Shown here in pieces: positions 5,376 through 9,548 of a stretch of 10,266 nt of DNA. The DNA comes from Armatimonadota bacterium. GTDB taxonomy: Bacteria > Armatimonadota > Hebobacteria > CAIYQO01. Below the pieces are notes generated by a model, which saw only the letters and a list, made by a program, of their open reading frames with translations, had not been told where the DNA came from and did no database searches. The stretch lies in the NCBI GenBank assembly GCA_038248345.1, contig JBBRXO010000094.1:1-10266 (forward strand), in the 5' to 3' direction. The first letter of the stretch is position 1. Each line of letters begins with the position of its first letter. Position numbers and translations under genes: made by a program.

Positions 5376-6002
5376 ATGTCAAAAGAAGCACAAATCCTGA
5401 TTGAAATCTGCCACCTGCTGGCGGAGCGCAGTTTCACCTCGGCCACCGGGGGGAATGTCAGCGTGCGACTGGATGATGGCAGCTTTCTGGTGACGCCCTC
5501 GCGCTTGCACAAGGCGCGCGTACAACTGGATGACCTGGTGCGTGTAGATGCGGAAGGTAACAAACTTTCGGGCACGCGTAACGCCTCCAGCGAGACACTG
5601 ATGCATCTGGCGATGTACCAGTCATTGCCGATGGCGGGGGCGATTGTACACGCCCATCCACCGGTGAGCACCGGCTTCGCGCAGGCGAAGGCGCCGATCG
5701 ACACCCGTTGCTCCTCCGAGGCCTACGCTATCTTCGGCCCGGAGATACCGCTCATCCATTATGATCGCCCCTCCACCCACCAACTGGCGGACATCGTGGG
5801 GATGTCCATGCTACCCGATATTAAAGCCTATCTGATGGCCAACCACGGCGTGCTCACCTGGGGCACCGACCTTTGGGATGCCTATGACATGCTCGACACG
5901 CTGGAGATCTTCGCCCAAAGCCTGCTCGTCGCCACCCAGCTCGGTGGAGCGATACCGTTACCGCAGGAAGAGCTGGATTGGCTGGCACAGAAGTTCCGCT
6001 AA
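5376..6002 (+). CDS. Class II aldolase/adducin family protein (FucA/MtnB/AraD superfamily)
   Basis: 'GGNVSVR', 'LVTPS', 'SSE..MH', metal-binding 'VHAHPP' and 'LMANHGVLTWG' motifs. SD-like AGAAGGA at 5361-5367. The substrate cannot be assigned from sequence alone. Confidence 0.92.
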   Translation: MSKEAQILIEICHLLAERSFTSATGGNVSVRLDDGSFLVTPSRLHKARVQLDDLVRVDAEGNKLSGTRNASSETLMHLAMYQSLPMAGAIVHAHPPVSTGFAQAKAPIDTRCSSEAYAIFGPEIPLIHYDRPSTHQLADIVGMSMLPDIKAYLMANHGVLTWGTDLWDAYDMLDTLEIFAQSLLVATQLGGAIPLPQEELDWLAQKFR

Positions 6003-6730
6003 TTAGTTTTAGCTGGTTCCGTTGTCACCTTCTCCACCACCTTAGTTGTCTTTATGCTTCCGATATACACCCAACGAGGTTGAGGAACCTTAACTGGTTT
6101 AGTGTCGGTAGCGGCAGGCGCAGGAGCGGCATCAGTCGGTTTGGGTTCGATTGGCTTGACGAACCAGGTAAAGGTAGTGGGTTTCCTCTTCGCGCCCTCT
6201 TTAACCGTGGTGTACGTGCCATTGCCGATCATCATTACCTTACCAATACCGACCGCAGTAACAGTTATTGCTTTGCCAACCACAAACAGGCGATATGCCG
6301 GAGTAACCGGAAGCGCTAATACCTCCACTGGCTTGGCAGCGGGATCAACCACGGCAGGCGCGGGTACTACGGCTGCTACAGCGACCTCACCCTTGAAGCC
6401 CGAGTAATTGAAGCCGTCAGTCGTCTCGTACTTACCTGCTTCTTTCTTAACTGTTTTCTCATCAGCTGCGGTAAACTTCAAAGCGGTATTCGCATCCGCC
6501 CAGATATACCCATCAACGGAAATCTTCGCCGAACCCTCGGTAAGACGCAGATTTACCGAGCCATCCCCAGCAGCTTTTAAGGTGCCGATTGTTTTGACAG
6601 TTGTAGCCACTTCCGGCGTAAGTGTGGCGGGCTTTTGCTCAGTGTTTGTAGTTGTCGGTGCCTGGGCAAAAACTGCCCCTACAGCCAACATCACACCAAC
6701 CAACAACGGTAGTAATAGACGAATTTTCAT
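5999..6730 (-). CDS. Secreted hypothetical protein, Gly/Thr/Val-rich beta-type core with Pro/Ala/Thr-rich linkers
   Basis: GGAGG SD (plus-strand cctcc 6738-6742) 7 nt before the ATG. Sec-type signal peptide MKIRLLLPLLVGVMLAVGAVFA|QAP. The minus-strand frame is much more protein-like than the overlapping plus-strand ORFs. Confidence 0.85.
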   Translation of the reverse strand: MKIRLLLPLLVGVMLAVGAVFAQAPTTTNTEQKPATLTPEVATTVKTIGTLKAAGDGSVNLRLTEGSAKISVDGYIWADANTALKFTAADEKTVKKEAGKYETTDGFNYSGFKGEVAVAAVVPAPAVVDPAAKPVEVLALPVTPAYRLFVVGKAITVTAVGIGKVMMIGNGTYTTVKEGAKRKPTTFTWFVKPIEPKPTDAAPAPAATDTKPVKVPQPRWVYIGSIKTTKVVEKVTTEPAKTN

Positions 6731-6829: not shown

Positions 6830-8509
6830 TCAGTATGGCAACCTCAAGCGCAAAAACTGGTTATCAATCTTCAATGCCACTTTCCCCGGTACCACGACGA
6901 CACTAAACTCTTTAGCATCTCCAATCATTGTCTGATAATCTTCGATGTGATCTAATATATCCAGCTCTTTCGTTAGACCTGTTGCTTTGCGAGCGCCTTC
7001 CAATTCATCTACTGCCTCTTTGGCGAACAACATCTGCGCTACCCCGATAGATCTCCCTGATGGCCGGGTGGCGTCCTGCTCAATAAACCACTTACTCGGA
7101 TCATCAGGTGCAGGTCTGCCGACAAGGAATTGATCCCAAGTGTCATTTTCTTTCTTAATAATCGGCTTGCGTCCCAACACCAGCAGATTGAATCCCAGCA
7201 CAGCTAATCCAGTCTCTTCTCGGCTATAGCCAACCTCCGCCTGTAACAAAACTAATTCAGTACCAGCAGCCTTGCCGTTGCTCGCTTGTTGCTGTCCAAT
7301 CTTCAACGCGGTTTGGATAGCCTCTCTGACCGTGGGGGCCGTGACAATATGATTTACAGTTGGAAGTGATACGGGGGCATTCAATGCTTTACGCCAGGCG
7401 GTACCGCCAATAAGCGCGAAGAGTAATAAAGCCAGCACGCCGGTCATCAACCATTCCTGCTTGCTCAGCTTCCATACCTTCAGGTTAGCGAAGATAACAC
7501 CGGCACAAATGAAGGGCAATCCGGGTAAGTATTCAAAGGAGATCTCGTGCCCCCATACCGTCAATCCCTGTAAAGCCATCAGCATTGAGGAGATCAGCAA
7601 GCCGACGAATATCCCCCACATGGTACGCTTGGTGGAGAAACCGAGTTTCCACGCACAGGTGAGAAAAAAGGCCAGGAAAACGAAGTCACCCAGGCCTATT
7701 GATGATGGCGGCGCCACATTAGCAAACATCTTCAAAAGCGGTGAACTTGCCGTCACTTGCTCGATCTGCCGTGAGACAATCTCAGAAGTTGGAGCTGCCG
7801 TTGCTACTGTAGCCGCCGAGCCGACTTTGCCGACAAACTCCGGCATATTAGTGCTCATCGCATTGACCGGGCCCCAATATACCCCCCAAAAATCTACCAG
7901 CGAGGAGACCACGGCGACGGGAATGAGAATGGCACGCTCTTTAATCAACCGTGAAATTAGCTGTCCAAAGAATACCCCGACGATGATGAGCAGGAAAGGT
8001 TCGATAAAATCGAGCGGCTTGAAGAAGCCCAGTTGAAATAGATTATCCAGCGCCCACTCGATCTTACTGGCGAAGAAATGCAAGATGACCATGAAGGGGG
8101 AACTATTGGAGTTAGTCGCCGTATCGGCTGCTGTGAATAAACGTACCAGCCCCCAAAGGAAAGAATTCAGCAGTATGTACACTACCAGCGCAGAAAGCAT
8201 GATCTTCGTTTCCTGCTTTTTGCTCAATGATAGATGACACATCAGGCGAATGGCGTTAACGAGAATTACCAGGTAACCTACCGTGGTTATCAACGGGACG
8301 ATAAACCACAAGACTAACGGCATTTGCAGGTTGAGGGCGTTAAATCCAGTTATGGCAATGAAGAACAGCAGATACAGCCCACTACCGAGTAAAGCGCTCC
8401 GCATGGGTGTCGGGTCTTTCTCAGTAGCTACATCATCGTCCTGCGGCACCTCTAACACTACAGGTACTTTCGGCTCTTCCGGCACTTGCTCCACCAGCTC
8501 ATCAACCAT
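6830..8509 (-). CDS. Polytopic membrane protein, putative presenilin/SPP-like GxGD intramembrane aspartyl protease with soluble C-terminal domain (559 aa)
   Basis: Start re-called at ATG 8509: AGGAGG at 8515-8520 is 5 nt upstream, and the gene overlaps the mreB stop by 8 nt. It has about 9 hydrophobic segments. Motifs: 'SLVDFWGVYWGP' (D206, 7892-7894), 'IGLGDFVF' (D275, 7685-7687) and 'LPGLPFI' (P329, 7514-7525). The CDS is high confidence; the function is moderate. Confidence 0.75.
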   Translation of the reverse strand: MVDELVEQVPEEPKVPVVLEVPQDDDVATEKDPTPMRSALLGSGLYLLFFIAITGFNALNLQMPLVLWFIVPLITTVGYLVILVNAIRLMCHLSLSKKQETKIMLSALVVYILLNSFLWGLVRLFTAADTATNSNSSPFMVILHFFASKIEWALDNLFQLGFFKPLDFIEPFLLIIVGVFFGQLISRLIKERAILIPVAVVSSLVDFWGVYWGPVNAMSTNMPEFVGKVGSAATVATAAPTSEIVSRQIEQVTASSPLLKMFANVAPPSSIGLGDFVFLAFFLTCAWKLGFSTKRTMWGIFVGLLISSMLMALQGLTVWGHEISFEYLPGLPFICAGVIFANLKVWKLSKQEWLMTGVLALLLFALIGGTAWRKALNAPVSLPTVNHIVTAPTVREAIQTALKIGQQQASNGKAAGTELVLLQAEVGYSREETGLAVLGFNLLVLGRKPIIKKENDTWDQFLVGRPAPDDPSKWFIEQDATRPSGRSIGVAQMLFAKEAVDELEGARKATGLTKELDILDHIEDYQTMIGDAKEFSVVVVPGKVALKIDNQFLRLRLPY

Positions 8510-9548
8510 GTTTTCCTCCTGTAACTGACGGGGCATTCGGTTGCCAGCCGCCCTCTTGCTTACGTAACGATTCCAGGTAATGCCCGGCCCCCAGCGCGAC
8601 ACAGCTCTGTGGATCATTGGCTGCGTGGGCCGTGACATTGATGCGTTTTTTAATGAGTACCTCAATCTGGCGGAAGAGCGCGCCGCCGCCGGTGAGGGTC
8701 ATGCCACGCTCCAGGATATCCGCCGCCAGCTCTGGCGGCGTCTCCTCCAGCACCTGGCGGATACGCTCACAGATGGTCAGCATCGGCTCTATCAGCACCT
8801 CACGTATCTCTTCCGAGTTAACATTCACCGTGCGCGGCAGGCCGTCCATCATATCGCGCCCGCGCACCTCCATGATCATCTCCGGATCCAGCTTCGCCAG
8901 CGAGCCGATCTGCAGCTTCACTTCCTCCGCCATATGCTCGCCGATGACCAGGTTATACTCGCGCCGCACATAGCGCACGATGGCGTCGTCGAAGTTATTG
9001 CCCCCCACGCGTGCCGATCCACTCACCACCACCCCGCCCAGCGAGATCACCGCGATATCCGTGGTGCCGCCGCCGATGTCCACCACCAGGTTGCCCAGCG
9101 GTGAGGTGACCGGCAAGCCCGCACCAATGGCCGCAGCCACCGGGGCCAGCAGGGGATATACTTGCCGGGCGCCCGCATCATGCACGGCATCCAGCACGGC
9201 GCGGCGCTCCACATCAGTGCTACCACACGGCAGACAAATAGCCACATCCGGGTGCACCAGCCGCCCCACCCCACATACGCGGTCGATAATATGCCGCAAC
9301 ATGCCGGTGGCCACGCTGTAGTTGGCGATCACCCCGGCCTTCAGCGGGCTTACCGCCTGGATATCACCCGCAGTGCGCCCCAGCATCAGCCGCGCATCCT
9401 CGCCGATAGCCACTGTCTTCCCCGATGACCGCGTCACCGCCACCACCGCCGGCTCGCGCAAGACAATACCGCGCCCCTGCTGATAAACCAGCACGTTCGT
9501 CGTCCCCAGGTCAATACCCAGTACATCGCCCAAACTTAAGATTTTCAT
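8502..9548 (-). CDS. mreB: Rod shape-determining protein MreB/Mbl family actin homologue, divergent
   Basis: Phosphate-1 'GIDLGTTN', 'GIVLREPAVVAV', 'VERRAV', 'AAAIGAGLPV', phosphate-2 'VVDIGGGTTDIAVISLGG', 'VRGRD..DGLPR', 'LEETPPELAADI', adenosine 'LTGGGAL', 'DPQSCVALGAG'. Confidence 0.95.
   Translation of the reverse strand: MKILSLGDVLGIDLGTTNVLVYQQGRGIVLREPAVVAVTRSSGKTVAIGEDARLMLGRTAGDIQAVSPLKAGVIANYSVATGMLRHIIDRVCGVGRLVHPDVAICLPCGSTDVERRAVLDAVHDAGARQVYPLLAPVAAAIGAGLPVTSPLGNLVVDIGGGTTDIAVISLGGVVVSGSARVGGNNFDDAIVRYVRREYNLVIGEHMAEEVKLQIGSLAKLDPEMIMEVRGRDMMDGLPRTVNVNSEEIREVLIEPMLTICERIRQVLEETPPELAADILERGMTLTGGGALFRQIEVLIKKRINVTAHAANDPQSCVALGAGHYLESLRKQEGGWQPNAPSVTGGKHG

Follow-up and report, generated by a model that had tools for sequence, protein, structure and literature searches.

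A Glu-less MreB paralogue and a presenilin/SPP-fold membrane protein are encoded by a family-specific gene pair in Armatimonadota

Why does a gene for a bacterial actin without its catalytic glutamate run directly into a gene for a presenilin-like membrane protein, and do the two form a functional module? This question was raised by contig JBBRXO010000094.1 of the Armatimonadota assembly GCA_038248345.1, whose positions 1 to 10,266 (10,266 nucleotides, nt) are called the window below; the source genome is 95.66% complete. The window contains three co-oriented minus-strand open reading frames, ORFs (9548-8502, 8509-6830 and 6730-5999, Table 1), which encode an MreB-family protein, a presenilin/SPP-fold membrane protein, here called the protease although its activity is predicted only, and a secreted-type protein. 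The mreB stop and the protease start overlap by 8 nt (minus strand 8509-8502, ATGGTTGA), an AGGAGG (8520-8515) lies within mreB, 5 nt ahead of the protease ATG, and 99 nt separate the protease stop from the ATG of the 243-amino-acid (aa) third ORF. This layout, described in an earlier note on the same DNA, was confirmed from the sequence. As shown below, mreB and the protease gene are a real, family-specific pair of genes for two individually unusual envelope proteins.

A Glu-less mreB was found directly upstream of the protease gene in nine of the 12 genomes of family f1, a family of uncultured bacteria to which the source genome belongs; the adjacency was absent from all three genomes of genus g2. 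The gene-neighbourhood check proposed in the earlier note thus revealed a conserved arrangement and not one unique to this genome. The two genes overlap in six of the nine linked genomes (by 8, 8, 17, 17, 17 and 26 nt) and are separated by gaps of about 70, 150 and 220 nt in the other three, so overlap is not obligatory. Metagenome loci (n = 43, several of them duplicates) comprised 21 with a long-form and 22 with a short-form protease. An mreB gene stood upstream in 14 of the 21 long-form loci; the seven unlinked ones were three of g2 type, one with only 320 nt of upstream sequence and three (L182, L186 and L188) with other genes upstream. None of the 22 short-form loci had mreB, and 13 of them had leuS. 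Outside family f1, 39 genomes had a protease match, and 38 loci from 37 of them were covered; no MreB was encoded by the co-oriented neighbours that were scanned. A leuS-type synthetase was encoded within two genes downstream of the protease in 22 of these loci, including 17/17 of the same class. This leuS context shows that the protease readily keeps neighbours without evident shared function. In family f1, hisF, whose product has no obvious function in the envelope, is found upstream of mreB in seven of the nine linked genomes, 36 to about 1,440 nt away, and in 7 of 12 metagenome loci tested, often at a distance of 1-1.4 kb. As a baseline for synteny, close co-oriented pairs of other f1 genera were taken for which both homologues are present in the source genome; 10 of 25 stay adjacent there. 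The mreB-protease pairing likely arose once.

The window MreB matched PF06723 (423.8 bits, E 4.6e-127) over its whole length and passed the cut-off of TIGR00904 (408.5 against 365.75 bits). MamK and MreBH are stand-alone actin paralogues with specialised positioning roles, and the window protein scored far under both NCBIfam cut-offs (64.5 against 400 bits for MamK, NF040964; 375.8 against 515 for MreBH). In a quick tree of 68 rows, built without bootstrap, it was placed among the second paralogues, in a 13-row clade of family f1 (support 100, stem 0.59). The same genome encodes a Glu-bearing second MreB on contig C104 (2887-3948), which falls inside the 37-row canonical clade (support 96). 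By coordinate comparison, mreC follows the member of this canonical clade in 34 of the 40 genomes outside family f1 that have an MreC match, and the window protein does not belong to the clade. Second paralogues outside family f1 have murA just ahead in 12 of 14 copies (13 upstream ORFs were scanned, one unresolved), a context that presumably resembles that of Firmicute mbl. The tree and the C104 copy therefore bear out the view of the earlier note that the window MreB is a non-housekeeping paralogue. Its argument from the missing mreC did not survive: mreC, mreD, pbp2 and rodA indeed had no match among the eight window ORFs in a Pfam scan, but all 11 f1 genomes with an MreC match lack an mreB match on the mreC contig. 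Because mreB and mreC are dispersed in this family, the absence of mreC is uninformative there and was discarded as evidence of paralogy.

The dispersal extends to the elongasome operon of family f1, with mreC and canonical mreB apart (C44:387-1175, C104:2887-3948, C51 and C36 in the source genome). Matches in the source genome comprised MreC, two PBP_dimer and three FtsW/RodA proteins; MreD and RodZ_C had none. A third, far more divergent MreB paralogue, also without the catalytic Glu, was observed in G019, G027, G021 and G042 (L100:4885-5907, L103:5133-6155, L105:4562-5584 and L106:5187-6212); three of these four copies have also lost the phosphate-2 Asp. G015, G019, G023 and G029 have a comparable low-scoring copy at a distance of 13-16 kb from their second paralogue.

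The earlier note also claimed the loss of the catalytic glutamate, which orients the attacking water, and this loss was verified by alignment. Residue A135 of the window MreB aligns with the Glu of LIDEP (E140) in Caulobacter crescentus MreB (4cze) and with the second Glu of IEEP in the Geobacillus protein (7zpt); E140 is named as catalytic in C. crescentus (PMC4051119). Position 135 is Glu in 37/37 canonical rows, in 11 of 14 second paralogues from outside the family and in 0/13 family f1 rows of the tree, and a wider alignment of 36 f1 rows has Ala in 17, Thr in 12, Ser in seven and Glu in none. Position 71, equated with D70 of Spiroplasma citri MreB5 by offset and motif, is Asp in 0/36 rows. 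Other features of MreB/Mbl are retained: D13, D157, T162 and D164 (the Mg-binding aspartates and the T-x-D/E motif) are present in the window protein, T162 being found in 25 of the 36 rows; of the filament-interface and membrane residues, V113 (C. crescentus V118), R58 and D277 are found in all 36; and L97-V98 align with the hydrophobic membrane loop of 4cze. Mean column identity over the 36 rows is 79%. Compared with MreB/Mbl, the f1 proteins are thus set apart by Ala, Thr or Ser in place of Glu, the lost Asp at position 71, a C-terminal W-x-P tail and the lack of a murA neighbour. The Glu is also missing in all three unlinked g2 copies and in three of the 14 second paralogues of other families, which shows that its loss needed no protease. 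As a separate observation, the linked mreB of G009 (C77, L085:2611-3715) has a frameshift near residue 82 and reads 22 residues beyond the tail motif.

In S. citri MreB5, the ATPase rate was lowered from 0.15 to 0.01 per min by E134A and to 0.05 by D70A; filaments of E134A still formed, bundling and liposome binding were reduced, and disassembly was not seen (PMC9195046). Spiroplasma MreB3 is a natural low-ATPase paralogue in which the catalytic motif E...T-x-[D/E] is missing; it releases phosphate slowly and is proposed to act as a stable anchor. It differs from the window protein in that Glu is replaced by Asp and Thr by Lys in a wall-less host (PMC9597168), whereas the window MreB has Glu replaced by Ala, keeps T-x-D, and belongs to a host with MreC and PBPs, next to a protease gene. 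By analogy, it is fair to infer that the Glu-less window MreB forms a hydrolysis-poor filament with slow turnover.

The neighbouring 559-aa protein is predicted to have about nine transmembrane helices. The hydrophobic-D, GxGD and PAL motifs define the presenilin/SPP class (PMC2947513 and PMC12745688), and the corresponding D206 (xD), G272-x-G274-D275 (GxGD) and P329-G330-L331 (PGL) are kept in the family (35-row alignment, A1). In 128 further relatives, each catalytic Asp was found in 122, the remaining six being gaps; the PAL-like motif had P in 118, L in 120 and G or A as the middle residue in 66 and 45, respectively. Pfam gave no A22/PF04258 match for the window protein and NCBIfam no meaningful family; PF04258 was matched by one of the 35 relatives (E 7.3e-5) and by none of 47 more distant ones. 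A family profile matched the presenilin-1 fragment 2kr6 from GxGD to PAL with E 0.012, and an Atlas cluster with 24% PF04258 was found at a score of 0.87, a lead only. A single-sequence search of the PDB returned nothing for the protease. An AlphaFold model built from 72 sequences had a predicted local distance difference test score (pLDDT) of 88.5. Foldseek returned nothing for it at E <= 0.001; the top four VIA-align matches were all aspartyl intramembrane proteases, SPPL2a (9k93, Z 9.6, root-mean-square deviation 4.6, 180 residues aligned), PSH (4hyc, Z 8.2), presenilin-2 (7y5z, Z 7.7) and presenilin-1 (4uis, Z 7.6), and unrelated rows of the same list reached Z 5.8. This fold ranking and the three motifs agree with the earlier note that the neighbour is presenilin-like, and the protein is a putative intramembrane protease.

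With helix boundaries placed manually on the model, mean Lys+Arg was 1.6-2.7 in the even loops and 0.4-0.9 in three odd loops; the other two of the five odd (outer) loops are ambiguous (1.8-1.9). This bias suggests the SPP orientation, with the predicted N-terminus inside and the catalytic loop and C-terminal domain outside. SPP-family enzymes cut type II segments (PMC12745688). The C-terminal domain, of about 185 residues, is present only in the family f1 rows of alignment A1 and was modelled with a pLDDT of 93.3. It could be matched to no known fold: the best VIA-align rows, a designed cystatin (Z 6.0) and the lipoprotein CD1622 (Z 5.6), are below the trusted level, and the Foldseek rows had TM-scores of about 0.3 or less. 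The earlier note had offered this domain as a contact for MreB, and the charge bias tends to speak against that, as it would place the domain outside the cytoplasm. If this orientation is correct, MreB could reach only the N-terminal tail and the short inner loops of the protease.

Among known proteins, the SPP family (MEROPS A22B, PF04258) is the closest, with the best fold match, the three motifs, a similar number of helices and possibly the same orientation. The window protein differs from it in being bacterial, in lacking a Pfam match, in having PGL for PAL and in its extra outer C-terminal domain. Likeness to PSH/MCMJR1 (PMC2947513) and to the presenilins (A22A) is seen in the fold scores and the 2kr6 profile match, but the window protein has VD instead of YD, and its orientation may be opposite to that of presenilin. 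The protease family was matched in 51 of 61 genomes of the phylum and has 869 representatives at E <= 0.001; in G013, G020, G036, G048 and G051 (86-99% complete) it is present without an MreB match at E 1e-60.

Other contexts of this protease family were observed. In family f19 (G044 and G057; L152:3424-6555 and L161:3041-5890), the domain is part of ORFs of about 950-1,040 aa that sit between genes for a TPR protein and a multiheme cytochrome; G057 has, in addition, a normal copy upstream of leuS. Loci of family f2 (L132, L135, L137, L139, L141, L163, L164, L166, L167 and L171) have a Peptidase_MA_2 gene directly ahead of the protease and leuS downstream, followed in several of them by a ComEA-like HhH gene.

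If MreB and the protease touch each other, the C-terminal tail of MreB is a candidate contact. The motif G-x-W-x-P-x-A-x-x-V-T-G ends all 23 linked MreBs (19 distinct), with G333, W335, P337, A339, V342 and G344 invariant; the search pattern required W-x-P, and no linked copy was dropped thereby. The tail was also present in 28 of the 30 closest database MreB homologues and was absent from the three unlinked g2 copies. Since the protease ribosome-binding site lies within the tail codons, the tail might have been a by-product of that site. This was ruled out, because the tail is kept even with 70 to >200 nt between the genes and the third positions of its codons vary, three or four codons being used for each conserved residue except Trp; the tail is thus under constraint at the protein level. 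The protease residue W353 sits at the inner end of the final helix and was found in 9/9 linked proteases and in 41 of 47 long-form rows; the position is Lys in the g2 rows and mostly Lys or Arg in the short forms of alignment A1. The unlinked L182 and L188 have W353 as well, as do 24 of the 128 library relatives, only seven of which are full long forms.

The copy G003:C173 (L074:189-1205), which has neither the tail nor the link to the protease, was considered as a natural control for tail loss and was set aside because it looks chimeric over its last 60-70 residues. Its identity to the G011 copy is 215 of 237 over the first 240 columns and drops to 14 of 30 towards the end; over its last 70 residues, a canonical MreB is about as good a match as the family f1 copies. 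In this contig, the Glu-less mreB is followed by a hairpin and a T-run, and the locus may be a chimera or a mis-assembly. The correlation between tail and linkage therefore amounts to one clean contrast, g2 against the rest.

The third gene is a looser member of the locus. Its product, with a signal peptide judged by eye, had no meaningful family in Pfam or NCBIfam, and the ESM Atlas gave only leads below 0.9. BLAST had missed its relatives, which made the gene appear not conserved; a profile search corrected this, and the family is real (leave-one-out profile, E 9.5e-13), being found in eight of the 61 genomes, all of family f1. The gene follows the protease in only three of nine linked genomes and in six of 21 long-form metagenome loci, and unlinked copies occur elsewhere, which weakens the proposal of the earlier note that its product is a possible substrate or partner. 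The TATAAT in the gap before it also occurs in the G005 gap, with a near match in L174, and not in five other gaps; a two-hexamer promoter scan did not list it and found no excess over shuffled sequences (5 against 4.1). The signal peptide is a possible and unremarkable substrate of an SPP-type enzyme. In G005, this family is expanded, with seven matches (contigs C62, C204, C208, C234 and C238).

Taken together, these results give about an even chance that the locus holds a lineage-specific, co-expressed pair, namely a hydrolysis-poor MreB filament and a housekeeping SPP-type protease, without direct contact between them. In this sequence of events, the second MreB would have left murA and lost its Glu at the base of family f1, the protease would have left leuS and gained its outer domain at the same point, and the two genes would have become neighbours once, in a block with hisF. 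They are likely co-transcribed. The MreB would form a slow-turnover membrane filament, as its Spiroplasma analogues suggest, with the conserved tail serving as a membrane or partner anchor. The protease would have a housekeeping role, cutting membrane segments of N-in/C-out orientation, signal peptides among them, and would not need to bind MreB. Neutral synteny from a single rearrangement could also be the source of the link. Several observations weigh against a pair without contact. The tail is kept as protein sequence and is missing exactly in the unlinked genus g2. No gene is inserted between mreB and the protease in any of the 23 linked loci, and hisF has drifted to 1.3-1.4 kb from mreB in three of seven cases and is lost from the block in the source genome; the mreB-protease link is thus tighter than the hisF-mreB link. 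The baseline pairs that stay adjacent look like pathway partners, by ORF reading rather than tool annotation. Finally, the stems leading into family f1 are long for both proteins (0.59 changes per column for MreB and 1.81 for the protease, the latter from a likewise quick tree without bootstrap).

The idea of the earlier note, narrowed to the cytoplasmic loops, is a direct scaffold: the hydrolysis-poor filament would dock by its tail on the protease from the cytoplasmic side, perhaps at Q351-E352-W353 in the loop that leads into the last helix, and would place or gate proteolysis. The distribution of the tail and of W353, with Lys in g2, the start-stop overlap in most linked genomes and the fact that 12 of the 30 closest MreB matches have the same longest-contig size as a protease match all fit this idea. 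It is nevertheless held only tentatively, since the phylogenetic contrast is a single one, W353 also occurs in unlinked proteases, and other families have the protease without an MreB match. A dedicated module is further disfavoured by Glu loss without a protease, by the synteny of hisF and by the one apparent origin of the link. A version in which the hydrolysis-deficient actin is a static membrane scaffold that binds the protease through a newly evolved tail, with the outer domain selecting substrates, is equally doubtful. It is rather improbable that the two proteins share a pathway without contact, in which the operon co-regulates them, MreB organises an envelope process and the protease acts in the same process by trimming MreC, a class B PBP (type II elongasome proteins) or what remains of one. 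The predicted SPP-like orientation suits N-in/C-out substrates (PMC12745688), the source genome has MreC, PBP_dimer and FtsW/RodA proteins, and murA is the ancestral neighbour of the second paralogue; but no PBP, MreC or RodA was found among 140 neighbours from 40 protease loci, and the nearly complete (95.7%) source genome has no MreD or RodZ_C match. Degeneration, that is, a decaying MreB or a membrane protein with only the looks of a protease, is very improbable. Further drift in the ATPase site (position 71 and T162), the lack of a Pfam A22 match, the modest fold scores (Z 7.6-9.6) and the frameshifted G009 copy would agree with it, whereas the high column identity of the f1 MreBs, both aspartates in all 122 relatives that cover them and the four aspartyl intramembrane proteases at the top of the fold list, above unrelated rows, argue against it.

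The coordinates of the features are collected in Table 1. Elsewhere in the window, a 5'-open ORF of at least 220 aa lies upstream of mreB (9603-10265, minus strand), with a lower guanine-cytosine content (about 0.44-0.48), no family match and a counterpart at this place upstream of mreB only in genome G001. On the plus strand (3-3151), an AcrB-family transporter gene overlaps an LTXXQ (Spy-like) gene; metG and a class II aldolase gene follow and converge on the secreted gene.

Table 1. Features of the mreB-protease locus (window coordinates).
Feature	Position	Strand	Basis
mreB-family actin, second (Mbl-like) paralogue, 348 aa	8502..9548	-	PF06723, TIGR00904, tree, residue census
Presenilin/SPP-fold GxGD membrane protein, 559 aa from ATG 8509	6830..8509	-	Alignment, motif census, AlphaFold model, fold matches
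Secreted-type protein, 243 aa, unannotated small family, loose third gene	5999..6730	-	Leave-one-out profile
A135 codon, catalytic glutamate position (E140 of C. crescentus MreB, E134 of S. citri MreB5)	9144..9146	-	Alignments to 4cze and 7zpt
Conserved C-terminal tail motif, linked MreB residues 333-345	8514..8552	-	23/23 linked copies
AGGAGG ribosome-binding site of the protease gene, within mreB tail codons	8515..8520	-	Sequence
Family f1-specific alpha/beta C-terminal domain of the protease, residues 375-559, predicted extracytoplasmic	6833..7387	-	Alignment, model, charge bias
Protease D206	7894-7892	-	Alignment
Protease D275	7687-7685	-	Alignment
Protease PGL motif, residues 329-331	7525-7517	-	Alignment
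TATAAT hexamer in the 99-nt gap before the secreted gene, possible separate promoter	6769..6774	-	Sequence

Presenilin/SPP-type proteases are described from eukaryotes and archaea in the papers cited here. A literature search, with subscription journals largely outside it, found no paper on such proteases in Armatimonadota and none linking them to MreB. The phylum-wide bacterial branch, with its family-specific outer domain, offers a simple system for finding the bacterial substrates of these enzymes. The window MreB is a natural, conserved variant with Ala for Glu, and its genome has wall-synthesis genes; it can therefore serve to test what such a filament does without hydrolysis. Should the tail indeed bind the protease, regulated intramembrane proteolysis would be tied directly to the bacterial cytoskeleton, and the scaffold, if real, would mean that intramembrane proteolysis in bacteria can be positioned by the cytoskeleton.

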